Source: Escherichia phage MRostami-2023e
Reading direction: 5' to 3' (one strand)
DNA length: 64,000 nt
Sequence record: OQ031495
In this document: positions 3,876 through 62,056 of the stretch, in pieces
Numbering within the stretch: position 1 is the first letter of the stretch
Layout of the letters: the number at the start of each line of letters is the position of its first letter
The notes under the pieces: generated by a model
Told to the model about the DNA's origin: nothing
The model's database searches: none
What the model saw: the letters and a program-made list of their open reading frames with translations, nothing else
Program-made: the position numbers and the translations under genes

Positions 3876-5858
3876 TTAACCACCTACAGCACCAATTAGT
3901 TCGTCGAAATCGGCACCAGTTGCTGTTGCTACAAAGTTCAATGTAATATAATTTATCGAGCGGGCAGGTTGTAAGTAGAAAGTAGCTACAAATTCATTAC
4001 GGTCGATAACTGCTGGGGTGTTATTGGTAGTATCACAAACAACTTTAAAGTTATATACACCACCGAGAGCTTTAATACCCTGTAGATATTGAGAAGTCTC
4101 TGTACGGAAAGAAGAACGGGTAAATGCGTTGTTCAATTCAAACAGGCGATATTTAGATGCTGAACCAATGTTCGTTTTAACCATATTGAACAAACGACGA
4201 ACGTTAATACGGTCAAATGGTGAAGGAACAGAAGTGGCAGTTTTATCACCGTACAGAACATACCCATCACCACCGGTACCAGTAACAGGGTTAATAGCTT
4301 CCTGATACAAACGATCACGTTGTGCTTGGCGAGTTTCAATTGCAAGCTTAATAACGTTAAGAATTTGTCCACGGTTATAACCGGCTGGAGACATCCAAGG
4401 CTGAGAAATATTGTCTGTACGAGCACAAAGTCCAGCGATATCAGCGGCTAATGGAACCCAACGATTCACATCATTATATTTGTCATATTGATATTTATAG
4501 TTACCGTCAATAGCGGCATAAGTAGAACTTACATTAAAGTTATTATCGGTGTAAGTTCCTGACGCAGTACGCCAATCAACCAGATTATCAACTGCACGAT
4601 TAACAGGAATACCGACTATAGTTGCACGTGGCGGTGAGCAAAGAACCAAGCAATCTTGACGAGAATCACCAATTGCTACAACATGTTTCTGAACTGTAGA
4701 AGCAACTTCTAAAGATTCACCTGCACAAGAACCGGCAATAAACAACTGCGCATTAACAGATTCACGGTCAGCAAACAAATCCCAAGCTTCCATTAAATCA
4801 CCAGCGTCAACCGTTTCATTAGATGATAAGCCACCACCCAGTTTGATTACGCCAGAGAAACCTTTTGGCCAACCTTGTGCAGTAGCGAAAATATAATTGC
4901 TTGCGCCTTTAGCAAAGAAATCATCAATAAAGATATTACTACCATAAATATCGCGTTCACCACGTTTAGTAGAAAGAACTACGCTCTGAACTACAGCATC
5001 GTTACGACGAACGATAATTGCATATTGGTCATCAGTTTGTGGGCCATACCCAAAGATTGCTTTAGCAGTAGATGCACGAGTACCACCATCAGGATAAATT
5101 TTTAACTGGGCTGAAGCACCTTTGTCATAGTCTGCTTTAGATACGATTTCAATTTCGAGCTGGTCGCCAAGTTCACCAGGATAAAGAGCAACTACGCCTG
5201 GGACACCATATTTTTTAATAGATTCTTGGAAAGTTAGAGAAGTAATAGCTTCTTCAGAAGTTTCAACTTCAGTTAACAGAATACCCGAATCGGTTACGAT
5301 AGAACCAATTGTAATAACGCCAGAGAGACCAGAAGAAGAACTGGCAACTTCGGCGGTCCAGTTAGAACCCAATGCCGGATATTCATTAATTTCTTTTGCA
5401 CGAGCAATAATTTTACCGGTTGGGATATAAATGTTAAGAATTTTACCATCGACATCAACTGAAGTGACATAACCATCTGCTTCAACAGTTTCGGTCAAAT
5501 ACTTAACGATAATTTTATCACCAACTGCATAGTTACTACCAGTAGCAGAGATTGTGAATTCAATATTGCCTGCTACAGGAGATGAGTTCTTAGCAGTATC
5601 ACGATCAACTGCGCGTACAACACGAAGGTCATTACCATATTGAAGGAAGTTCATAGCAGACATGAAATAATCTGCTGTATCCGTATTAGGAGTACCAAAC
5701 ATATCAACTAATGCAACTTCATCAGTGATTTGTTTAATCTGGAATGCAGGTCCCCATTGGAATTTTCCAGCCAGGGCAGCAGTACCAGTGGAGTTATTAA
5801 CTACAGTACTCTGTACGGTAGTTTCTTTGAGCTCAACGCCCGGAGAGAGAAGTGACAT
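3876..5858 (-). CDS. 18: Contractile tail sheath protein gp18
   Basis: 660 aa (T4 gp18 659 aa); MSLLSPGVELKETTVQSTVVNNSTGTAALAGKFQWGPAFQ... Confidence 0.93.
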   Translation of the reverse strand: MSLLSPGVELKETTVQSTVVNNSTGTAALAGKFQWGPAFQIKQITDEVALVDMFGTPNTDTADYFMSAMNFLQYGNDLRVVRAVDRDTAKNSSPVAGNIEFTISATGSNYAVGDKIIVKYLTETVEADGYVTSVDVDGKILNIYIPTGKIIARAKEINEYPALGSNWTAEVASSSSGLSGVITIGSIVTDSGILLTEVETSEEAITSLTFQESIKKYGVPGVVALYPGELGDQLEIEIVSKADYDKGASAQLKIYPDGGTRASTAKAIFGYGPQTDDQYAIIVRRNDAVVQSVVLSTKRGERDIYGSNIFIDDFFAKGASNYIFATAQGWPKGFSGVIKLGGGLSSNETVDAGDLMEAWDLFADRESVNAQLFIAGSCAGESLEVASTVQKHVVAIGDSRQDCLVLCSPPRATIVGIPVNRAVDNLVDWRTASGTYTDNNFNVSSTYAAIDGNYKYQYDKYNDVNRWVPLAADIAGLCARTDNISQPWMSPAGYNRGQILNVIKLAIETRQAQRDRLYQEAINPVTGTGGDGYVLYGDKTATSVPSPFDRINVRRLFNMVKTNIGSASKYRLFELNNAFTRSSFRTETSQYLQGIKALGGVYNFKVVCDTTNNTPAVIDRNEFVATFYLQPARSINYITLNFVATATGADFDELIGAVGG

Positions 5859-9085: not shown

Positions 9086-9848
<763 letters not shown>

Positions 9849-9856
<8 letters not shown>

Positions 9857-10778
9857 NNNNNNNNNNNNNNNNNNNNNNNNNNNNNNNNNNNNNNNNNNNN
9901 NNNNNNNNNNNNNNNNNNNNNNNNNNNNNNNNNNNNNNNNNNNNNNNNNNNNNNGTAACACCGCCAGGAAGCATCATGCCTTGATGACGTGCTAAAATTT
10001 GGCCATTTAATTCTTTAGCTAAAGCTGTAGCATAGTCTTTAACCCAGCGGTTGTTATATGCGCCTTGTTTAGTTGCAGGATCTTCACCAACTCGACGTCC
10101 GACCAAATTATGGTCCGGATTATCATAACGTTCAGAAATAGACCATGAATCACGAGGACCTACTTGACCGTACCCTACTGTATTTCCTACCATCTTATGG
10201 GTCTCGATATAAGAGCGAACATACGATTCAACGATAATGACATCTTTCTGTCTAAAGTTACCCATTACTTTTAATTGCTCGTTTGCAGAGTTAAACCAAA
10301 AATCTGGAAGAGGAGCAATCATATCTTGAAGCATACCCATATAAGATACTAATTGAGAATAATACCCGAGGTCAGCGCCAAAAGCGTTCGGACCGTAGAA
10401 TTTACCACAATTACTACCCATACCACCTGAAACACCGGCCATTCCTAAAAGGAAATCAGTGAACCATGGATAAGTTGCATTACCATCCATTGAAGTAATA
10501 GAGCCAACGTTTGTTCTTATAATTCTTGTTACAGCAAATACGTTAGAACCACGCATATCAAATACGCCGTGACGGTATTTTTCTTCGTCATCAACAAAAA
10601 ATACATGGAAACCTTTATTCAACCCGTCAAAATGGTATTCGCCATAAAGTTCTAACGCTCGTGAAATACAATCATAAATTTGGTCTGTAGTTAATTCAAC
10701 ATTTACAATAGGAGCGCCTAAACGACGTAATATTACATCTTTTAATTCTTTAGGGTTTTGTGCATTATAACCTGACAT
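9849..10778 (-). CDS. 13: Neck protein gp13 (3' end inside N-masked run; end estimated)
   Basis: N-terminus [30 protein letters not shown]... matches T4 gp13 as recalled. Confidence 0.8.
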
Positions 10779-30109: not shown

Positions 30110-30397
30110 ATGAAAACATATCAAGAATTTATNNNNNNNNNNNNNNNNNNNNNNNNNNNNNNNNNNNNNNNNNNNNNNNNNNNNNNNNNNNNNNNNNNNN
30201 NNNNNNNNNNNNNNNNNNNNNNNNNNNNNNNNNNNNNNNNNNNNNNNNNNAAAGGTACTGTTTACCTAGGTGATGGGTGGTCTGCTAAAAAGGATGGTGC
30301 TACAATCGTTATCTCTCCTGCCGAAGAAACTGCGTTGTTTAAAGCTAAACACATTTCTGCAGCACATCTCAAGATTATTGCTAAAAATCTTTTGTAA
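30110..30397 (+). CDS. ipI: Internal protein I (capsid-targeted, injected; interior masked by N)
   Basis: Starts MKTYQEF (capsid-targeting sequence); C-terminal part KGTVYLGDGWSAKKDGATIVISPAEETALFKA... as T4 IPI from memory. Confidence 0.75.
   Translation: MKTYQEFXXXXXXXXXXXXXXXXXXXXXXXXXXXXXXXXXXXXXXXXKGTVYLGDGWSAKKDGATIVISPAEETALFKAKHISAAHLKIIAKNLL
30133..30250. other. N-masked run (118 nt) inside ipI
   Basis: run of n. Confidence 1.
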
Positions 30398-30457
30398 NNN
30401 NNNNNNNNNNNNNNNNNNNNNNNNNNNNNNNNNNNNNNNNNNNNNNNNNNNNNNNNN
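30398..30457. other. N-masked run (60 nt)
   Basis: run of n. Confidence 1.
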
Positions 30458-33798: not shown

Positions 33799-33827
33799 NN
33801 NNNNNNNNNNNNNNNNNNNNNNNNNNN
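33799..33827. other. N-masked run (29 nt)
   Basis: run of n. Confidence 1.
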
Positions 33828-38466: not shown

Positions 38467-38728
38467 NNNNNNNNNNNNNNNNNNNNNNNNNNNNNNNNNN
38501 NNNNNNNNNNNNNNNNNNNNNNNNNNNNNNNNNNNNNNNNNNNNNNNNNNNNNNNNNNNNNNNNNNNNNNNNNNNNNNNNNNNNNNNNNNNNNNNNNNNN
38601 NNNNNNNNNNNNNNNNNNNNNNNNNNNNNNNNNNNNNNNNNNNNNNNNNNNNNNNNNNNNNNNNNNNNNNNNNNNNNNNNNNNNNNNNNNNNNNNNNNNN
38701 NNNNNNNNNNNNNNNNNNNNNNNNNNNN
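38467..38728. other. N-masked run (262 nt), flanked on both sides by gtttaca promoter elements
   Basis: run of n. Confidence 1.
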
Positions 38729-40271: not shown

Positions 40272-40504
40272 GTATAGCAATTTACATTAAATCAGAATCA
40301 TGTGATAGTTATCTATACACATACGATAAAGATGTGTCAGAAGAAAAAATCAAAGACGACCTTAATATGGACCTTGATATGTTCTGTCCTATTGCAGATT
40401 ACAAACTTGCGGTCTCTAATAGTGAAAGTCCATCTAAAGAAACGCGCATTGAAGAATTTATGTCCGAATTAATGGCCAAATCATGGGACCGAGATGATGA
40501 GTAA
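40268..40504 (+). CDS. Hypothetical acidic protein (78 aa)
   Basis: ATG overlapping previous stop region. Confidence 0.5.
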   Translation: MSIAIYIKSESCDSYLYTYDKDVSEEKIKDDLNMDLDMFCPIADYKLAVSNSESPSKETRIEEFMSELMAKSWDRDDE

Positions 40505-40952
40505 GAAAAATAAAGTGAAAGAACTATCAGCCGGTATTATTTTCCTTACCGAAGATAAAGAATTATTCATGGGGCGTGTAACTGGTTCTCGTCCTAAAGG
40601 TTCTTTAGCTCATCGGTGGGATATTCCTAAAGGACGTGTCGAGCCCGGTGAATCTCCTATCGAAGCCGCTATTCGCGAATGCGAAGAAGAAACTGGGTTT
40701 ACACAATATGACCCTGCCTTCCTGAAAGACCTAGGTGAACATCATTACTCAGACAATAAGAATATTCATCTGTTCCTATATACCATCCCTGTAGAGCACG
40801 AGCAATTCAGAAACAGTGTTTGTAATTCCTATCATACGTTCCCAGACGGACGTCAGATTCCTGAATTTGATGCATTCGCTTTAATTAAACCTTCTCAATG
40901 GGAATATGTAATGGGCAAATCATTATATAAGGTGCTCACTACCCTCCTATAA
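40494..40952 (+). CDS. nudE: Nudix hydrolase NudE (T4 e.1)
   Basis: Nudix box GRVEPGESPIEAAIRECEEETGF; directly upstream of lysozyme gene. Confidence 0.85.
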   Translation: MMSKKNKVKELSAGIIFLTEDKELFMGRVTGSRPKGSLAHRWDIPKGRVEPGESPIEAAIRECEEETGFTQYDPAFLKDLGEHHYSDNKNIHLFLYTIPVEHEQFRNSVCNSYHTFPDGRQIPEFDAFALIKPSQWEYVMGKSLYKVLTTLL

Positions 40953-40959
40953 GTAATAA

Positions 40960-40985
40960 ATACCTCCTATAAACGTGGGAGGTAT
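40960..40985 (+). promoter_or_regulatory. Hairpin sequestering the lysozyme SD (atacctcc / ggaggtat), late-promoter-like tataaacg in loop
   Basis: 8-bp inverted repeat; ggagg SD in right arm, ATG at 40987. Confidence 0.55.
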
Positions 40986-40986
40986 T

Positions 40987-41475
40987 ATGAATATATTTGA
41001 AATGCTTCGTAATGACGAAGGTCTTAGACTGACTTTATACAAAGACACTGAAGGCTTTTGGACGATTGGCATAGGCCATTTAGTAACAAAGAACCCGTCT
41101 TTAGCCGTAGCTAAAGCTGAACTTGACAGAATGATCGGACGTAAATGCAACGGTACAATTACCCTTGATGAGGCCGAAAAGCTATTTAATGAAGACGTTG
41201 ATAAAGCCGTTCGCGGAATCTTGGGTAATGCTAAACTTAAACCGGTATATGATTCTTTAGATGCGGTTCGTCGTTGTGCATTGGTCAATATGGTCTTCCA
41301 AATGGGTGTAGCAGGCGTCGCCGGTTTTACTAATTCTCTTCGTATGCTTCAACAGAAACGTTGGGATGAAGCGGCAGTAAATCTAGCCCAATCTAAATGG
41401 TATCGTCAGACACCTAATCGCGCGAAACGCGTAATCTCAACATTTAAAACAGGAACTTGGAAAGCGTATATATGA
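40987..41475 (+). CDS. e: Endolysin (T4 lysozyme, gene e)
   Basis: [32 protein letters not shown]... matches T4 lysozyme as recalled; 162 aa. Confidence 0.95.
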
Positions 41476-41753
41476 AAACATATAGTGAATTTTTATCAGA
41501 ATCTATTCTTAACGAAGCTACTGACACATTTGCAACTAAGCTAGGTGCAGCTTTGGTTGAAGCCGAAAGTCTACTAGCACGTATTTCTGAACTTGCTAGT
41601 AAGATAGATACTCGCAAATTTGAACGTACTAGCGATATCGCTAAGCTTGAAGCCTTGTTACGTATGTGCAATAAACCGGAAGAAATCGCTAAGAACGGCT
41701 CGCTGATGAAACAACGTCTTGAAAAATATATTTCAGGCGCTTCAGAAAAATAG
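41472..41753 (+). CDS. Internal-protein-like gene with capsid-targeting sequence ([10 protein letters not shown])
   Basis: ATGA overlap with e stop; CTS N-terminus; position of T4 ipIII. Confidence 0.65.
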
Positions 41754-41811
41754 TGTTTACTTCCTCCAAGGGTTTTGATACTATACATTCATCAACTACT
41801 TGGAGGAAATT

Positions 41812-42348
41812 ATGACTCGTATCAATTTAACACTTGTTTCTGAACTGACCGACCAACATCTTATGGCTGAGTATCGTGAATTACCACGCGTATTTGGTGC
41901 AGTCCGTAAACATGTTCAAAACGGTAAACGTGTAAAGGATTTTAAAATCTCTCCAACATTTATCTTAGGCACAGGTCACGTAACATTCTTTTACGACAAA
42001 CTTGAATTTTTACGTTTAAGACAAATCGAGCTAATCGCTGAATGTTTGAAACGTGGTTTCAAAATCAAGGACACGACAGTCCAGGATATTTCCGACATCC
42101 CTGCCGAATTTCGTAATAATTATGTCCCGTCCGAAGCGTCCATTGCGATAAGTCAAGCACGCTTAGATGAAAAAATTGCTCAACGTCCGACTTGGTACAA
42201 ATACTATGGTAAATCAATTTACCAAGGAAAAATGAAAATGTATCAAGAATTTATCATTGAAGCAGATGCCAAAGGTCCTAAAGTAGATGTTGACGATATT
42301 GGATACGATTTTAACAACTTCGGAATTATTTCTGGCGGTAAAGCTTAA
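41812..42348 (+). CDS. denV: Endonuclease V (pyrimidine-dimer DNA glycosylase) with C-terminal in-frame extension into a CTS-bearing mini-ORF
   Basis: First ~136 aa match T4 DenV as recalled; ORF lacks a stop at the expected position and continues ...[17 protein letters not shown]... to 42348. Confidence 0.85.
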
Positions 42349-42351
42349 ATT

Positions 42352-42381
42352 GTTTACGCTTAAGTATTAATATGGTATAAT
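42352..42381 (+). promoter_or_regulatory. Early promoter (gtttac N18 tataat)
   Basis: seen in sequence. Confidence 0.6.
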
Positions 42382-42411
42382 TACTCTATCAAAACAAACA
42401 AGGAAACAAAA

Positions 42412-42729
42412 ATGAAAACATATAAAGAATTTATCGCCGAATCTGCTGCAGGACAACGTGTAGAAGGTGGTTATATCTGGATTGAACAAGTTGAGCCGCC
42501 AAGTCGCACTTCTACAGGTAAATGGAAAATCACTGTTGATGGTCCTGGTGGTAAACGTAGGACTCTTAAAGAAATTAATGGGTACTATGAAGAAGCTCTT
42601 TCTGACGCGGGTACTTATATGATGCAAATCATGATTAAAAACCCAGAAAATCGTTTTGCGGCTAGAGTTTTCCGCCGTATTGGAAATAAGCTTTATGATG
42701 CATATTCTAAAAACTTCCCTAAAGAATAA
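42412..42729 (+). CDS. Internal-protein-like gene with capsid-targeting sequence (MKTYKEFIAE)
   Basis: 105 aa; CTS N-terminus; own promoter. Confidence 0.65.
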   Translation: MKTYKEFIAESAAGQRVEGGYIWIEQVEPPSRTSTGKWKITVDGPGGKRRTLKEINGYYEEALSDAGTYMMQIMIKNPENRFAARVFRRIGNKLYDAYSKNFPKE

Positions 42730-42745
42730 AAATTAAAGGAAACAT

Positions 42746-42777
42746 ATGAAAACATATCAAGAATTTATTACTGAAGC
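42746..42777 (+). CDS. Start of another CTS gene (MKTYQEFITE), remainder N-masked
   Basis: 10 readable codons then N-masked run. Confidence 0.5.
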
Positions 42778-43217
42778 NNNNNNNNNNNNNNNNNNNNNNN
42801 NNNNNNNNNNNNNNNNNNNNNNNNNNNNNNNNNNNNNNNNNNNNNNNNNNNNNNNNNNNNNNNNNNNNNNNNNNNNNNNNNNNNNNNNNNNNNNNNNNNN
42901 NNNNNNNNNNNNNNNNNNNNNNNNNNNNNNNNNNNNNNNNNNNNNNNNNNNNNNNNNNNNNNNNNNNNNNNNNNNNNNNNNNNNNNNNNNNNNNNNNNNN
43001 NNNNNNNNNNNNNNNNNNNNNNNNNNNNNNNNNNNNNNNNNNNNNNNNNNNNNNNNNNNNNNNNNNNNNNNNNNNNNNNNNNNNNNNNNNNNNNNNNNNN
43101 NNNNNNNNNNNNNNNNNNNNNNNNNNNNNNNNNNNNNNNNNNNNNNNNNNNNNNNNNNNNNNNNNNNNNNNNNNNNNNNNNNNNNNNNNNNNNNNNNNNN
43201 NNNNNNNNNNNNNNNNN
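42778..43217. other. N-masked run (440 nt)
   Basis: run of n. Confidence 1.
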
Positions 43218-43381
43218 TATTTACATTCAAATAACATGGGAACAACCTGGACCTCATGATTCTATGAGGGATTCCCGCCAACCTGTAATAAGGTCGAGCC
43301 CAAGTGCGGTAATGGGTTTACATAGCGAGTCGAAGGACCTAACATGTGCCACGGAATGGCCCAAACCTTAAGAGAAATAAT
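43218..43381 (+). ncRNA. Non-coding, noticeably GC-richer segment with several short hairpins; candidate structured RNA (5' part masked)
   Basis: No credible ORF; cctcatg-attct-atgagg hairpin; composition unlike flanking AT-rich intergenic DNA. Confidence 0.3.
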
Positions 43382-43921
43382 ATGAGAACATTTTTAACTG
43401 GACCTTATCTATCCCTGATGAATGCTTTTACACACCATTCTGATGCTAGAGTAGAAGAAATTTGTAAGAACGGATATGTCCCACCATTTGAAGACGTACT
43501 CAAGCAGTACTGTACACTTCGTTTAGACGGCGGCCGACAATCAGGTAAATCAATTGCTGTGACTAACTTTGCTGCTAATTGGCTGTATGATGGTGGAACG
43601 GTTATTGTTCTTTCTAATACTTCAGCTTATGCTAAAATTTCTGCTGGCAACATTGAAAAAGAATTTTCTCGTTATTCTAGCGACGATATTCGATTCCGTT
43701 TATTTACTGATTCTGTTCGTAGTTTTATTGGCAATGAAGGTTCTAAATTCCGTGGATTAACGCTTTCTCGTATTCTGTATATAATTGACGAGCCTATTAA
43801 AGCTCCTGATATGGATAAGATTTACAATGTCCATATTAAAACAGTACAGTACTGCTGTAAAAGCAAATATTGCATCGGCGGTAATGCTCGTCCTCAATTT
43901 TTTGTGATTGGAATGCAATGA
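43382..43921 (+). CDS. Small P-loop NTPase-like protein (180 aa)
   Basis: Walker A GGRQSGKS, Walker-B-like LYIIDEP. Confidence 0.55.
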   Translation: MRTFLTGPYLSLMNAFTHHSDARVEEICKNGYVPPFEDVLKQYCTLRLDGGRQSGKSIAVTNFAANWLYDGGTVIVLSNTSAYAKISAGNIEKEFSRYSSDDIRFRLFTDSVRSFIGNEGSKFRGLTLSRILYIIDEPIKAPDMDKIYNVHIKTVQYCCKSKYCIGGNARPQFFVIGMQ

Positions 43922-44226
43922 TGACCACTATTGAAGTTTTTGAATATTGTTATAACAGTCCAGTATGCAATAAAAGGGCCCTTGTAGAAAATTACGAGAT
44001 TTACCATTTTAAACCTAAACGATATCGTTTGACTAAAGGTCCGTTCGCAGGGCAGCAGGTTCTTTGTACTGCTCCTAATGCACGACTGATGACTAGTATT
44101 CCACATTTCAAAATGGAATTTATTGATGGGCCATTTAAGGGATTAATCACTCAAAGTTTAATGGCGTTTAATTCCGTCCCATTTTTGATTAAAGAAAAAA
44201 CTTGGATAAATTTATTTTCTAATTGA
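43918..44226 (+). CDS. Hypothetical protein (102 aa)
   Basis: ORF track; ATGA-coupled. Confidence 0.55.
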   Translation: MMTTIEVFEYCYNSPVCNKRALVENYEIYHFKPKRYRLTKGPFAGQQVLCTAPNARLMTSIPHFKMEFIDGPFKGLITQSLMAFNSVPFLIKEKTWINLFSN

Positions 44227-44232
44227 GGTTAT

Positions 44233-45080: not shown

Positions 45081-45282
45081 NNNNNNNNNNNNNNNNNNNN
45101 NNNNNNNNNNNNNNNNNNNNNNNNNNNNNNNNNNNNNNNNNNNNNNNNNNNNNNNNNNNNNNNNNNNNNNNNNNNNNNNNNNNNNNNNNNNNNNNNNNNN
45201 NNNNNNNNNNNNNNNNNNNNNNNNNNNNNNNNNNNNNNNNNNNNNNNNNNNNNNNNNNNNNNNNNNNNNNNNNNNNNNNNNN
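45081..45282. other. N-masked run (202 nt); an ATG at 45075 opens a masked gene
   Basis: run of n. Confidence 1.
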
Positions 45283-47154: not shown

Positions 47155-47416
47155 NNNNNNNNNNNNNNNNNNNNNNNNNNNNNNNNNNNNNNNNNNNNNN
47201 NNNNNNNNNNNNNNNNNNNNNNNNNNNNNNNNNNNNNNNNNNNNNNNNNNNNNNNNNNNNNNNNNNNNNNNNNNNNNNNNNNNNNNNNNNNNNNNNNNNN
47301 NNNNNNNNNNNNNNNNNNNNNNNNNNNNNNNNNNNNNNNNNNNNNNNNNNNNNNNNNNNNNNNNNNNNNNNNNNNNNNNNNNNNNNNNNNNNNNNNNNNN
47401 NNNNNNNNNNNNNNNN
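47155..47416. other. N-masked run (262 nt)
   Basis: run of n. Confidence 1.
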
Positions 47417-47560: not shown

Positions 47561-47568
47561 NNNNNNNN
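47561..47568. other. N-masked run (8 nt)
   Basis: run of n. Confidence 1.
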
Positions 47569-49288: not shown

Positions 49289-49628
49289 NNNNNNNNNNNN
49301 NNNNNNNNNNNNNNNNNNNNNNNNNNNNNNNNNNNNNNNNNNNNNNNNNNNNNNNNNNNNNNNNNNNNNNNNNNNNNNNNNNNNNNNNNNNNNNNNNNNN
49401 NNNNNNNNNNNNNNNNNNNNNNNNNNNNNNNNNNNNNNNNNNNNNNNNNNNNNNNNNNNNNNNNNNNNNNNNNNNNNNNNNNNNNNNNNNNNNNNNNNNN
49501 NNNNNNNNNNNNNNNNNNNNNNNNNNNNNNNNNNNNNNNNNNNNNNNNNNNNNNNNNNNNNNNNNNNNNNNNNNNNNNNNNNNNNNNNNNNNNNNNNNNN
49601 NNNNNNNNNNNNNNNNNNNNNNNNNNNN
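49289..49628. other. N-masked run (340 nt)
   Basis: run of n. Confidence 1.
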
Positions 49629-55549: not shown

Positions 55550-56485
55550 ATGGCTTTTATTACACGTAAAGAACTTATCAAAGAATTTACCTCGAACGCA
55601 TATACTCCAGGACCTAATCCTATCCGTATGCCTGTAAAGACTCCTGAAGAGATTGAGGAAGTCTGTTCATATTATGGGATTACTTCTCGTAAGTTTACTC
55701 AATTTGAATGCGTTACTAACACACCCGTTAAAGAGTTCATTAAAAATGGTGAGTTCAGCCGTTTATTAGCCAAACAGAAACTTCGTAATTTTTGTATTGG
55801 CGGTGAAGGACAATATTTCGCTAAGCAGTTCCGGAATAACCTTAACAATCTGATGGCCATTGCTTCTCGTATTCGTCCTCAAGCAATTAACATGAAACAT
55901 TTGAAATATACTTACGATAAGTTGGAAATCATGGTTATCAGTGAGAATGAGTTCACTCTTACGTATAAACCTAAGAATGATAACGTTGCTCGTGTATTTC
56001 ACCAAGCGTTGGAAGTTTTAGGTGATAATATCCACCAGATTAAAGCAATTTATTCACGTGAGCTTAATATTATCAACCCCATCAAGAATAAGGGTCATAT
56101 TGCTATCCAGGCTCGTGTATCTATTGGTAAAAAGGTTCCTGCGCCATGGTGGCACAAAGACTCTGAATACTATCAAAATCTTAAAAAGGAAAATGCATTG
56201 TTTGAAGCATCGCTTACTGGAACCCCAATTGAACAGGCCGAAGTCCTAAGTGCTTATTCTACTTCTNNNNNNNNNNNNNNNNNNNNNNNNNNNAAACTAA
56301 AAGTTTCTAATGACCTTCTTCCGGCCGAAGATTACCATTACAATCAAATCAAGGCCACTATGGACCAACTGTCTGTTGAACTTGACAAAGCACAAGCTAA
56401 GCTTCGTGATGCTCAAAGTGTTGTAACGAATCTCCAGTTGCAGTATTCTAAACTTTTTAACGCAATGAATGCATTAAAATCATAA
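55550..56485 (+). CDS. Hypothetical protein with C-terminal coiled coil (311 aa; 27 nt masked)
   Basis: ORF track. Confidence 0.6.
   Translation: MAFITRKELIKEFTSNAYTPGPNPIRMPVKTPEEIEEVCSYYGITSRKFTQFECVTNTPVKEFIKNGEFSRLLAKQKLRNFCIGGEGQYFAKQFRNNLNNLMAIASRIRPQAINMKHLKYTYDKLEIMVISENEFTLTYKPKNDNVARVFHQALEVLGDNIHQIKAIYSRELNIINPIKNKGHIAIQARVSIGKKVPAPWWHKDSEYYQNLKKENALFEASLTGTPIEQAEVLSAYSTSXXXXXXXXXKLKVSNDLLPAEDYHYNQIKATMDQLSVELDKAQAKLRDAQSVVTNLQLQYSKLFNAMNALKS
56267..56293. other. N-masked run (27 nt)
   Basis: run of n. Confidence 1.
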
Positions 56486-59539: not shown

Positions 59540-59724
59540 NNNNNNNNNNNNNNNNNNNNNNNNNNNNNNNNNNNNNNNNNNNNNNNNNNNNNNNNNNNNN
59601 NNNNNNNNNNNNNNNNNNNNNNNNNNNNNNNNNNNNNNNNNNNNNNNNNNNNNNNNNNNNNNNNNNNNNNNNNNNNNNNNNNNNNNNNNNNNNNNNNNNN
59701 NNNNNNNNNNNNNNNNNNNNNNNN
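59540..59724. other. N-masked run (185 nt) flanked by identical 9-mers ttaagttaa
   Basis: run of n. Confidence 1.
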
Positions 59725-60242: not shown

Positions 60243-62056
60243 AAATTGAAAAAGAAATTGAAGGATTAATTCATAAAACTAATAAAGACCTTTTAAACGA
60301 GAATGCTAATAAAGATTCTCGTGTTTTTCCAACTCAACGGGACCTTATGGCTGGTATTGTGTCTAAGCACATTGCCAAAAATATGGTCCCGTCTTTTATT
60401 ATGAATGCGCATGAAAGCGGAATCATTCACATGCATGATATTGATTATTCTCCTGCTCTTCCATTTACTAATTGCTGTTTAGTCGATTTAAAGGGGATGC
60501 TTGAGAATGGATTTAAATTAGGCAATGCTCAAATTGAAACGCCTAAATCTATTGGCGTTGCTACTGCAATTATGGCACAAATTACCGCACAAGTTGCTTC
60601 ACACCAATATGGCGGAACTACATTTGCGAATGTCGATAAAGTTCTTTCTCCTTATGTTAAACGCACATACGCTAAACATATTGAGGACGCAGAAAAATGG
60701 CAAATCGCTGATGCGTTGAATTATGCCCAATCTAAAACAGAAAAAGACGTATACGATGCATTCCAAGCTTATGAATATGAAGTAAATACTCTCTTTAGTT
60801 CAAACGGACAGACTCCTTTTGTAACAATTACATTTGGTACAGGAACCGACTGGACTGAACGAATGATTCAGAAAGCAATTCTTAAAAACCGCATTAAAGG
60901 CCTTGGTCGTGATGGAATAACTCCTATTTTCCCTAAGCTTGTTATGTTCGTTGAAGAAGGTGTTAATCTTTATAAAGACGATCCGAACTATGATATTAAG
61001 CAGCTTGCTTTAGAATGTGCAAGCAAAAGAATGTATCCTGACATCATTTCGGCTAAGAACAATAAAGCTATCACCGGCTCATCTATTCCTGTTTCTCCAA
61101 TGGGTTGCCGTAGTTTCTTGAGCGTATGGAAAGATTCAACTGGCAATGAAATTCTTGATGGACGCAATAATCTTGGCGTTGTAACACTGAATCTTCCTCG
61201 TATTGCGTTAGATTCTTATATTGGAACACAATTCAATGAACAGAAATTTGCCGAATTGTTCAATGAACGAATGGACCTGTGTTTTGAAGCTTTGATGTGT
61301 AGAATTAGTTCCTTAAAAGGAGTTAAAGCGACTGTTGCTCCTATTCTTTACCAAGAAGGTGCATTTGGGGTTCGTCTTAAACCTGACGACGATATAATTG
61401 AGTTATTTAAAAACGGTAGAAGTTCAGTGTCTTTAGGATACATCGGTATTCATGAATTGAATATTCTTGTCGGCCGTGATATTGGACAAGAAATTTTAAC
61501 TAAAATGAATGCTCATCTTAAACAGTGGACTGAAAGAACCGGTTTTGCTTTTAGCTTGTATTCTACTCCTGCTGAAAACCTGTGCTATCGCTTCTGTAAA
61601 CTTGATACTGAAAAATATGGAAGTGTAAAAGATGTTACTGATAAAGGCTGGTACACTAACAGTTTCCATGTTTCAGTAGAAGAAAATATTACTCCGTTTG
61701 AAAAGATTTATCGCGAAGCCCCATATCATTTCATTTCGNNNNNNNNNNNNNNNNNNNNNNNNNNNNNNNNNNNNNNNNNNNNNNNNNNNNNNNNNNNNNN
61801 NNNNNNNNNNNNNNNNNNNNNNNNNNNNNNNNNNNNNNNNNNNNNNNNNNNNNNNNNNNNNNNNNNNNNNNNNNNNNNNNNNNNNNNNNNNNNNNNNNNN
61901 NNNNNNNNNNNATTTGTTTGTTCTATGTGTGGAGAAACTGATCCTAAAAAGATGAACACAATAAGAAGAACGTGTGGTTATCTTGGAAACCCGAACGAAC
62001 GCGGATTTAATCTAGGCAAAAATAAAGAAATCATGCATAGGGTTAAACACCAATGA
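60239..62056 (+). CDS. nrdD: Anaerobic ribonucleotide reductase NrdD (uninterrupted; 173 nt masked)
   Basis: 605 aa; C-terminal glycyl-radical motif RRTCGYLGNP. Confidence 0.9.
   Translation: MKIEKEIEGLIHKTNKDLLNENANKDSRVFPTQRDLMAGIVSKHIAKNMVPSFIMNAHESGIIHMHDIDYSPALPFTNCCLVDLKGMLENGFKLGNAQIETPKSIGVATAIMAQITAQVASHQYGGTTFANVDKVLSPYVKRTYAKHIEDAEKWQIADALNYAQSKTEKDVYDAFQAYEYEVNTLFSSNGQTPFVTITFGTGTDWTERMIQKAILKNRIKGLGRDGITPIFPKLVMFVEEGVNLYKDDPNYDIKQLALECASKRMYPDIISAKNNKAITGSSIPVSPMGCRSFLSVWKDSTGNEILDGRNNLGVVTLNLPRIALDSYIGTQFNEQKFAELFNERMDLCFEALMCRISSLKGVKATVAPILYQEGAFGVRLKPDDDIIELFKNGRSSVSLGYIGIHELNILVGRDIGQEILTKMNAHLKQWTERTGFAFSLYSTPAENLCYRFCKLDTEKYGSVKDVTDKGWYTNSFHVSVEENITPFEKIYREAPYHFISXXXXXXXXXXXXXXXXXXXXXXXXXXXXXXXXXXXXXXXXXXXXXXXXXXXXXXXXXXFVCSMCGETDPKKMNTIRRTCGYLGNPNERGFNLGKNKEIMHRVKHQ
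61739..61911. other. N-masked run (173 nt) inside nrdD
   Basis: run of n. Confidence 1.

Follow-up and report, generated by a model that had tools for sequence, protein, structure and literature searches.

Why does a T-even phage carry several short genes whose products begin alike and are otherwise dissimilar, most of them crowded around denV, and do these genes form a reservoir of injected proteins that counter host defences? The window (the whole 64-kb stretch of DNA analysed here) belongs to an RB69/JS09-like T-even phage of the Mosigvirus type. A six-frame scan of the window for MK.Y.[ED][FLIV], the start of the capsid-targeting sequence (CTS) of T4 internal proteins (IPs), finds five ORF starts and no more, each of them on the + strand (30110, 41472, 42232, 42412 and 42746; Table 1). 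An earlier note on this DNA had counted at least five, and its count holds; its start at 42235 has to be moved, as MKMYQEF begins at 42232. M-K-[T/M]-Y-x-E-F is present in all five ORFs, and the stricter pattern MK[TM]Y.EF, observed five times in the window, has a mean of 0.0 in 200 shuffles.

The leader also keeps the residues that matter for function. Targeting and processing of T4 IPIII are governed by residues 4 (Y), 7 (F), 8 (L/I) and 10 (E), and every readable copy in the window retains Y4, F7, L/I8 and E10. The prohead protease gp21 cleaves after L/I-x-E, and such a site occupies residues 8–10 in the four readable copies (LSE↓S, IIE↓A, IAE↓S and ITE↓A), the ipI copy being N-masked past residue 7. 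In all-against-all BLASTP, the CTS proteins are alike only across their first 12–19 residues, so that their mature parts are unrelated, as the earlier note had maintained.

Table 1 Features of the two internal-protein loci in the window
Feature	Coordinates	Strand	Remarks
ipI orthologue, 95 aa, partly N-masked	30110..30397	+	starts MKTYQEF; first IP locus, downstream of genes 1, 57A, 57B
93-aa CTS protein, predicted cleavage before S	41472..41753	+	PHROG 3499 'internal head protein', E=5e-46
denV (endonuclease V), 178-aa frame	41812..42348	+	canonical 137 codons end at 42222; Pfam Pyr_excise (PF03013), PHROG 1183
38-aa CTS mini-ORF (RB69ORF125c equivalent), predicted cleavage before ADAK	42232..42348	+	PHROG 35655, E=2e-30
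Putative T4-early/sigma-70-like promoter ahead of Ip10	42353..42381	+	TTTACG-17-TATAAT, extended TG, 10/12 matches; consensus match only
Ip10, 105 aa, MKTYKEFIAE↓SAAG...	42412..42729	+	96% identical to CAA84455 'Ip10 [Enterobacteria phage Pol]', same 90% cluster; PHROG 3966
Fifth CTS gene, MKTYQEFITEA...	42746..43217	+	body hidden by N-mask 42778-43217
Conserved non-coding block, right boundary of IP cassette region	43218..43381	+	precedes vs.8 (ATG 43382)

Set against the T4 annotation, the gene order of the window fits both T4 IP loci, 57B–ipI and e...denV...vs.8. At the first, the order 1–57A–57B–ipI is the same as in T4, and the unmasked C-terminal 48 residues of the 30110 product match PDB 2JUB, 'Internal protein I' (E=7.4e-27), which bears out the assignment of this gene as ipI. 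At the second, the ATG of the 93-aa protein overlaps the stop codon of the lysozyme gene e (ATGA), and the JS09 and ST0 orthologues of this protein are internal head proteins in the RefSeq annotation. Other annotated equivalents of the IP genes are ip10 and ipIV in PP01 and RB69ORF124c/125c in RB69. All CTS-protein families of the window are already represented in databases; the 93-aa and Ip10 families are both narrow (3 and 5 clusters at 90% identity, respectively), and the exact Ip10 sequence occurs in 42 contigs, Tequatrovirus phages among them. The T4 late promoter TATAAATA has no exact match near the IP genes. Bearing the CTS and its cleavage motif, lying in the two classical IP loci, including homologues of named IPs and touched by a recent cassette swap (see below), the CTS ORFs are very probably the internal-protein genes of a Mosigvirus-type T-even phage, working by the following mechanism.

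The 10-residue N-terminal CTS would dock each protein on the scaffolding core of the prohead, gp21 would cut after L/I-x-E at Glu10, and tens to hundreds of copies of the mature 3–11 kDa protein would remain in the head until they entered the cell along with the DNA. There, ahead of any phage gene expression, the protein would at once inhibit, in stoichiometric fashion, a host nuclease directed against sugar-modified hydroxymethylcytosine DNA (GmrSD-family type IV restriction), with one enzyme subtype per IP family. Recombination in conserved CTS-coding DNA and in conserved flanking blocks would change the IP repertoire. Packaging, cleavage, injection and an anti-restriction role are ascribed to the window proteins by analogy with work on T4. 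Likewise, gp21 and the gp22 scaffold are presumably encoded in this genome, in a head-gene module beyond the 64-kb window, since both belong to the core genes of all relatives.

For each of the T4 proteins Ip1, Ip2 and Ip3 a separate GmrSD type IV enzyme is the target, and there is no cross-protection (Silas et al. 2025); RB69 IPI counters GmrSD attack on RB69 (Thomas et al. 2018), whose arabinosyl-hmC DNA is cut by GmrSD. With the T4 proteins (Bair 2007; Rifat 2008; Silas 2025) the window shares an ipI orthologue, the CTS and L/I-x-E motif and, possibly, an IpII orthologue beneath the mask at 42746. Homology to Ip1–3 in the mature part is found for the 30110 gene, through 2JUB, and the 42746 gene is masked. 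In contrast, the 93-aa protein, Ip10 and the 86/38-aa family to which the mini-ORF belongs resemble Ip1–3 in the CTS only, with no likeness beyond it detectable by BLASTP. The DNA context probably differs as well, being glucosyl-hmC in T4 and, to judge from the relationship to RB69, arabinosyl-hmC here.

A further difference concerns activity. When Ip4–10 were screened against 15 synthesised GmrSD groups, none of the groups was reproducibly inhibited (Silas 2025), a result suggesting either that the target of Ip10 may be something other than GmrSD or that the right subtype or DNA modification was absent from the screen. That the defences inhibited by Ip10 and the 93-aa protein lie outside GmrSD is a tentative possibility, doubtful in itself and still more probable than the packaging of DenV considered below. 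Structure prediction offers no clue to the function of either protein. With shallow alignments, the AlphaFold2 model of Ip10 is unusable (pLDDT 48), and that of the 93-aa protein is all-helical (pLDDT 72.5, pTM 0.36) and has no Foldseek match in the PDB. Sequence searches of the PDB find nothing for the 93-aa protein and only sub-threshold hits for Ip10 (filamin and CsgH, E ~0.1–0.4); NCBIfam returns nothing for either protein, and Pfam gives only sub-threshold hits for the IP ORFs (CsgH at E=0.089, and DUF7412). We leave the recurring CsgH hint uninterpreted.

The same lack of anti-GmrSD activity from Ip4–10 would be expected if the CTS proteins were mainly structural or physicochemical, that is, basic counter-ions aiding the condensing, packaging or ejection of DNA, their diversity reflecting weak constraint and no arms race. 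Mature Ip10 (95 aa, pI 9.6) and IpII-type proteins are indeed basic (pI 9.6–9.7, 16–18 Lys+Arg), and in T4 heads solid-state NMR places IP lysines against DNA phosphates, with ~1000 IP molecules embedded in the DNA. Such bulk charge is nevertheless not shared by the 93-aa and 86/38-aa families: the mature part of the 93-aa protein (83 aa) has a near-neutral pI of 7.8 and that of the mini-ORF (28 aa, 2.9 kDa) an acidic pI of 4.3, both unlike the basic T4 IPs, a difference that also tells against the main reading. Moreover, all three T4 IPs have specific GmrSD targets without cross-protection, and genomes that are otherwise identical swap whole unrelated folds as cassettes, in keeping with selection that acts on specificity and not on bulk charge. 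We consider the counter-ion explanation improbable and retain injected inhibition of host defences as the preferred reading.

A comparison with phage vB_EQ1 brings such an exchange into view. The two genomes are 100% identical over 40494–42231 and 43230–44230; between these flanks, the window carries Ip10 and the masked IP, whereas vB_EQ1 carries an IpIII-like gene and the full 86-aa IP. The left junction lies inside CTS-coding DNA, with identity to vB_EQ1 stopping about 27–29 bases into the Ip10 CTS block, past which the sequence is 100% of the Tequatrovirus A6-6 type. These sequence comparisons document a recent exchange of IP cassettes between the genera Tequatrovirus and Mosigvirus, with its junction in CTS-coding DNA.

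The gene at 42746 belongs to this cassette, and its relatives narrow down what the mask may hide. An apparent 162-aa ORF (42746–43234) is an artefact of the N-mask, its stop falling inside the conserved non-coding block. The ATG of the gene and the TATTTAC block are 472 nt apart, precisely the spacing seen in JS09, and the JS09 gene at this fifth position is 93% identical to T4 IpII. The 3' end of Ip10, the spacer and the start of the 42746 CTS are, for their part, 100% identical to A6-6, where ipIV comes after ip10. There are thus two candidates. On the JS09 pattern the gene would be an orthologue of IpII (T4 Ip2), 100 aa long, with a truncated second denV behind it; on that of PP01 and A6-6 it would be IpIV-like. 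BLAST across the mask finds no record with equal spacing (spans of 625, 663 and 788 nt, where the window has 678 nt), and complete E. coli genomes offer no match.

On the right, the cassette region ends at the non-coding block, which is 100% identical to that of vB_EQ1 despite the differing IP genes upstream. A structured RNA-like core at 43276–43318 is conserved in 1088 phage records, and a promoter-like site lies at 43317–43345. The outer P1 helix of the core covaries around an invariant two-hairpin core, and a covariance model scores 73 bits and finds a single copy in the window. RNAalifold gives only a weak consensus for the core, its single-sequence fold is no more stable than shuffles (z=0.23), an Rfam search with it returns nothing at E≤10 and a full-text literature search for its sequence finds no relevant paper. 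The core is not a leader specific to vs.8, as it precedes an unrelated gene in rV5-like phages. The arrangement recalls PeSL cassettes (Arbiol 2010; Comeau 2014), in which conserved intergenic blocks with early-promoter motifs likewise flank variable genes and match recombination boundaries. By contrast with those cassettes, the left junction here is in CTS-coding sequence and not in an intergenic PeSL; a PeSL is a simple G/C stem-loop with ~50 repeats per genome, whereas this block holds a three-helix element with an invariant core; and the element is also found in unrelated, non-T4 phage families. A promoter-like site is adjacent, but with one copy in the window we do not class the block as a PeSL cassette.

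The remaining CTS start, at 42232, had been described as lying inside an extension of denV. It is in frame with denV; the extension, however, amounts to nothing more than a lost stop codon. A single-base change has converted TAA, the codon in JS09 and ST0, into CAA at 42223–42225, so that the frame runs on through the CTS mini-ORF to 42348, and the product has 178 aa in place of the usual DenV form (~137–138 aa, ...YGK[AS]IY[A]-stop). The protein is 91% identical to T4 DenV, with its catalytic domain intact. This read-through depends on one base, found in only 1 of 194 GenBank relatives (vB_EQ1) and, by exact scan for the junction, in no IMG/VR contig, as might be the case if it were a sequencing or assembly error and the 38-aa ORF of the real phage stood apart from a normal DenV of 137 aa. 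We judge such an error very unlikely, as vB_EQ1 is an independent deposit with different downstream gene content, annotated with a 226-aa DenV fusion. Nor need the loss of the denV stop do harm, since the mini-ORF has lost neither its own ATG nor its AAGGA ribosome-binding site.

What the mini-ORF itself does is a separate matter. Alignment with ST0 indicates that an 86-aa IP became the 38-aa form by losing 144 bp internally and in frame, a deletion that JS09 has too; in its undeleted form the protein hits PHROG 2667, 'internal head protein', at E=3e-19. The 38-aa product is most likely a decaying remnant. We find it somewhat probable that it is a non-functional leftover of a deleted IP gene, with no part in any functional reservoir: the deletion takes out 48 of the 76 mature residues, and the mini-ORF has no matches in Pfam or NCBIfam. 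Its persistence speaks for some function, in that the deletion is in frame and common to JS09, RB69 and enough phages to form a PHROG of its own, and that the CTS is retained, along with the ribosome-binding site and the last 23 residues. Small internal peptides do stay in T4 heads.

The fused frame also permits a bolder idea, in which the internal CTS of the DenV–CTS–IP fusion (178 aa here, 226 aa in vB_EQ1) would carry DenV into the prohead, gp21 would free DenV after ...QEFIIE, and DenV would be injected with the DNA. The idea supposes that a CTS can act away from the N-terminus; the T4 Alt protein, by way of example, carries a C-terminal propeptide that gp21 removes. We think this extremely unlikely. 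If true, phage genomes damaged by sunlight would receive a pre-packaged repair enzyme, and with DenV a DNA-repair enzyme would for the first time be seen to serve naturally as an internal protein of a T-even phage.

The cluster of CTS genes is real and already known, being the well-known hypervariable IP locus of T-even phages. Polymorphic IP loci, with Ip1–Ip10, were described by Repoila, Tétart, Bouet and Krisch (EMBO J 1994). With these loci, as later papers present them, the window agrees in their positions (beside 57B and between e and vs.8/denV), in a conserved leader of ~10–11 aa joined to unrelated mature parts, in conserved flanking DNA blocks and in the 105-aa gene, which is Ip10 itself; the difference is not one of kind and lies in the window's own cassette mix, in which a Tequatrovirus-type Ip10 allele sits in a Mosigvirus backbone, and in the lost denV stop. 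A junction within the CTS is likewise the exchange mechanism already proposed in 1994. Calling the cluster expanded is apt by comparison with T4, which has two IP genes here, but not with the Mosigvirus phages JS09 and ST0, which carry the same four CTS genes around denV; four is normal for Mosigvirus. T4-like denV loci in IMG/VR hold 1–5 CTS ORFs, commonly on both sides of denV, and 36 such loci comprise at least 15 unrelated CTS families.

The proposal that the locus is a reservoir of uncharacterised injected anti-defence proteins accords with the published view, reviews describing IPs as diverse injected, defence-countering proteins with the CTS alone in common. Its implied novelty does not stand, given that the polymorphism was known in 1994, that Ip10 has been named and that Ip4–10 have been screened. 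More broadly, the IP loci constitute a real, mostly unexplored and not new store of injected anti-defence proteins and, because only Ip1–3 have known targets, each further IP family offers a candidate against some defence not yet known. The window genome and vB_EQ1 form a near-isogenic natural pair, and any divergence in host range between the two could lead to what Ip10 or the IpIII-like protein targets.

A six-frame regular-expression scan of the window returned exactly five starts carrying the 10-residue capsid-targeting sequence (CTS) of internal proteins (IPs), at 30110, 41472, 42232, 42412 and 42746, against a mean of 0.0 in shuffled sequence. The earlier note's count of five therefore stands, although the MKMYQEF start that it placed at 42235 begins at 42232. 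In T4 IPIII, residues 4 and 7 govern targeting and residues 8 and 10 processing, with the prohead protease gp21 cutting after L/I-x-E (Kuhn & Thomas 2022); Y4, F7, L/I8 and E10 are retained in all readable copies (LSE/S, IIE/A, IAE/S and ITE/A, the slash marking cleavage). The mature portions are dissimilar, as had been claimed, with resemblance in an all-against-all BLASTP limited to the first 12-19 residues. Together, the scan against shuffles, the retained key residues and the N-terminal confinement of similarity sustain the CTS assignment.

The description of this cluster as 'expanded' holds against T4, whose annotated order at the equivalent place is e-ipIII-ipII-denV-vs.8, but not against JS09 and ST0, each of which has the same four genes around denV. 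Window 40900-42778 is ~96% identical to JS09, ST0, JK36 and APCEc01, members of Mosigvirus, the genus of RB69-like T-even phages that infect E. coli. More broadly, 36 T4-like denV loci from IMG/VR hold 1-5 CTS ORFs each, commonly on both sides of denV and falling into at least 15 unrelated families, and the window's readable CTS genes all belong to recurrent families. Thirteen N-runs mask 2257 bases of the window (9804-9954, 30133-30250, 30398-30457, 33799-33827, 38467-38728, 42778-43217, 45081-45282, 47155-47416, 47561-47568, 49289-49628, 56267-56293, 59540-59724 and 61739-61911); because two of them cover most of ipI and the entire body of the fifth CTS gene, mechanical ORF calls across N-runs are unreliable.

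Features of the internal-protein locus and its surroundings (window positions)
Feature	Position	Strand	Remark
ipI	from 30110		T4-like order: genes 1, 57A, 57B, then ipI
nudE	40494-40952	+
Lysozyme e	ends 41475	+
IP93, 93-aa CTS ORF	41472-41753	+
denV	from 41812	+
38-aa CTS mini-ORF	42232-42348	+
Ip10, 105-aa CTS ORF	42412-42729	+
Fifth CTS ORF	from 42746	+	enters N-mask 42778-43217
Conserved non-coding block			between fifth CTS ORF and vs.8
RNA-like element	43262-43372	+	core 43276-43318; between IP genes and vs.8
vs.8	43382-43921	+	followed by vs.7 and GrcA-like vs.6

Most of the individual genes can be placed. The unmasked C-terminal 48 residues of the 30110 product match 2JUB, the T4 internal protein I structure solved by NMR (E=7e-27). 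IP93 falls in PHROG 3499, 'internal head protein' (E=5e-46), as its JS09 and ST0 orthologues are also annotated in RefSeq; the family is narrow, and its predicted structure, all-helical, matched none of the solved structures. The IP93 ATG overlaps the e stop codon (ATGA), which suggests translational coupling to e. Ip10 shares a 90% cluster with CAA84455, 'Ip10 [Enterobacteria phage Pol]' (96% identity), is annotated ip10 in PP01, and occurs as the exact 105-aa sequence in 42 contigs, mostly Tequatrovirus. The 38-aa mini-ORF corresponds to RB69ORF125c (PHROG 35655); aligned with ST0, it is the 86-aa IP86 (PHROG 2667) minus 144 bp, in frame, with the CTS and the final 23 residues still present.

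Comparison with phage vB_EQ1 (PQ516281) suggests how such a locus changes. Identity is 100% across nudE, e, IP93 and denV (40494-42231) on one flank and over 43230-44230 on the other. The genes in between differ: IP86 is full-length in vB_EQ1 and is followed by an IpIII-like gene (92% identical to T4 IpIII), whereas in the window IP86 carries its deletion and Ip10 and the masked gene come next. Identity to vB_EQ1 persists past the intergenic promoter and into the CTS-coding sequence of the next gene, of which the first 27 nt are shared; beyond them the window becomes A6-6-type Ip10 (100%) and vB_EQ1 continues as IpIII. The left junction thus lies within the conserved CTS-coding block, and on the right the cassette is bounded by the conserved block that starts with TATTTACATTCAAATAA. 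On these alignments, the difference is a recent cassette swap, spanning Tequatrovirus-type and Mosigvirus-type genomes, and represents shuffling of the kind attributed to Repoila et al. (1994), who are credited with recombination through conserved leader and flanking sequences.

The same pair shares a change in denV. Its terminator, TAA in JS09 and ST0, is CAA in the window at 42223-42225, so the denV frame continues via GK into the in-frame mini-ORF, fusing DenV to a CTS-bearing peptide and bearing out the claim of a CTS start within a denV extension. Among 194 GenBank phages matching the 61-nt stretch, vB_EQ1 alone is identical, and no CAA variant was found in IMG/VR; the two independent deposits nevertheless argue against a sequencing error. 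In vB_EQ1 the read-through product, DenV joined to the undeleted 86-aa IP, carries the annotation of a 226-aa endonuclease V. The mini-ORF still has an AAGGA ribosome-binding site of its own, so it can be translated separately despite the read-through.

The content of the masked fifth gene can be judged from its edges. A 162-aa ORF at 42746-43234 was rejected as spurious, a product of translation through N's; the block holding its 'stop' is non-coding in vB_EQ1. From the 42746 ATG to the TATTTAC block is 472 nt, exactly as in JS09, where the corresponding stretch holds IpII (93% identical to T4 IpII), then a promoter and a denV fragment of 45 codons, from the N-terminal end. By contrast, the Ip10 3' end, spacer and fifth-gene CTS start are identical over 138/138 nt (100%) to Tequatrovirus A6-6, and in A6-6 and PP01 ip10 is followed by ipIV (157 aa); the window's spacing across the mask was found in no database record. 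Weighing the spacing against the A6-6 identity, we somewhat favor JS09-like over IpIV-like content. The second, truncated JS09 denV (4705-4842 of L002, the JS09 sequence) matches the T4 DenV N-terminus at 80% identity over its first ~36 codons. An early-promoter-like sequence of its own accompanies it, and it sits immediately after IpII, in the order ipII-denV known from T4. It looks like the scar of an earlier cassette insertion, and by colinearity a counterpart possibly lies at masked window ~43097-43234.

Between the IP genes and vs.8 lies a conserved, RNA-like element that is apparently structured. Its core, ACCUGU-NNN-AAGGUC-NAGC-N4-6-GCG-GUAA, is enclosed by a short, covarying outer helix, P1, of 3-5 bp with a bulged G. 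BLAST places the element in about 1088 phage records. The T4-like ones are phages of Escherichia, Klebsiella, Yersinia, Enterobacter and Vibrio; unrelated families are represented as well, by rV5-like Vequintavirus, the 146-kb Shigella phage SF1-1 and a 44-kb coliphage. None of 5,426 E. coli genomes contains it. It is always intergenic, on the strand of its flanking genes, and usually immediately upstream of a sigma-70/T4-early-like promoter. In T4-likes the core is nearly invariant although downstream Vs.8 falls to 34-46% identity, and in rV5-likes the following gene differs. Across 38 distinct sequences three P1 pairs covary strongly (AU19/UA10/CG3/UG3/GC2, CG22/GC7/UA5/AU2/GU1 and CG30/GC8), scoring 0.316 versus 0.082 when shuffled (0/500 reach 0.316) and at most 0.079 in slid registers. 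The inner helices are invariant, so that covariation neither supports nor contradicts them, and single-sequence folding gives a stability that is not unusual (z=0.23). A covariance model finds a single copy in the window (73 bits), Rfam returned no match even at E≤10, and no paper containing the sequence was found in the searched literature. Unlike published PeSL stem-loops, the element here is single-copy, has three helices and is common to several phage families. Possible roles are to delimit a transcript, to mark a processing site or to serve as a binding site for a phage or host factor.

Two T4-like IMG/VR contigs, L015 (~3979-4170) and L024 (~4438-4600), carry the element as two tandem, diverged copies, one with a compensatory inner-hairpin change (GCCU...AGGC for ACCU...AGGU). 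T4 vs.8 is annotated as 219 aa, its 5' 40 codons overlying the element (T4, NC_000866, 64786-64919 versus window 43235-43381), whereas in the window and most relatives Vs.8 starts at a downstream ATG (MRTFLTGPYL...); the T4 start is thus probably over-extended. A 35-aa 'hypothetical protein' is annotated across the element in vB_EQ1. The Vs.8 translation contains a Walker-A-like motif, GGRQSGKS, so the gene next to the IP locus on its downstream side may encode an uncharacterised P-loop NTPase.

By T4 precedent, the CTS would dock each IP onto the scaffolding core, gp21 would cut it off after Glu10, and the mature protein would stay in the head to be injected with the DNA. T4 Ip1, Ip2 and Ip3 each inhibit one subtype of the type IV restriction system GmrSD, without cross-protection (Silas et al. 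2025), and RB69 DNA, which carries arabinosyl-hmC and is cut by GmrSD, is protected by RB69 IPI (Thomas et al. 2018). These precedents support the earlier note's reading of the cluster as a plausible reservoir of injected anti-defence proteins and, by analogy, the uncharacterised IPs would most likely inhibit other modification-dependent nucleases. By contrast, none of 15 synthesised GmrSD groups was reproducibly inhibited by Ip4-10 (Silas et al. 2025), and mature IP93 is near-neutral and non-basic (pI 7.8) and the 38-aa remnant acidic (pI 4.3), which together are real evidence against a simple extension of the Ip1-3 role. Candidate targets include GmrSD variants that act specifically on arabinosylated DNA and defences of other kinds.

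Published work already covers this type of locus, its polymorphism, how it is proposed to change and its significance for anti-restriction, and the individual IP families are already named or catalogued. Small additions to this picture are that denV has lost its stop codon, that the mini-ORF can be recognised as what a deletion left behind, and that the window forms a near-isogenic pair with vB_EQ1. As two near-isogenic phages, the window phage and vB_EQ1 could act as a natural experiment for finding the targets of these proteins.
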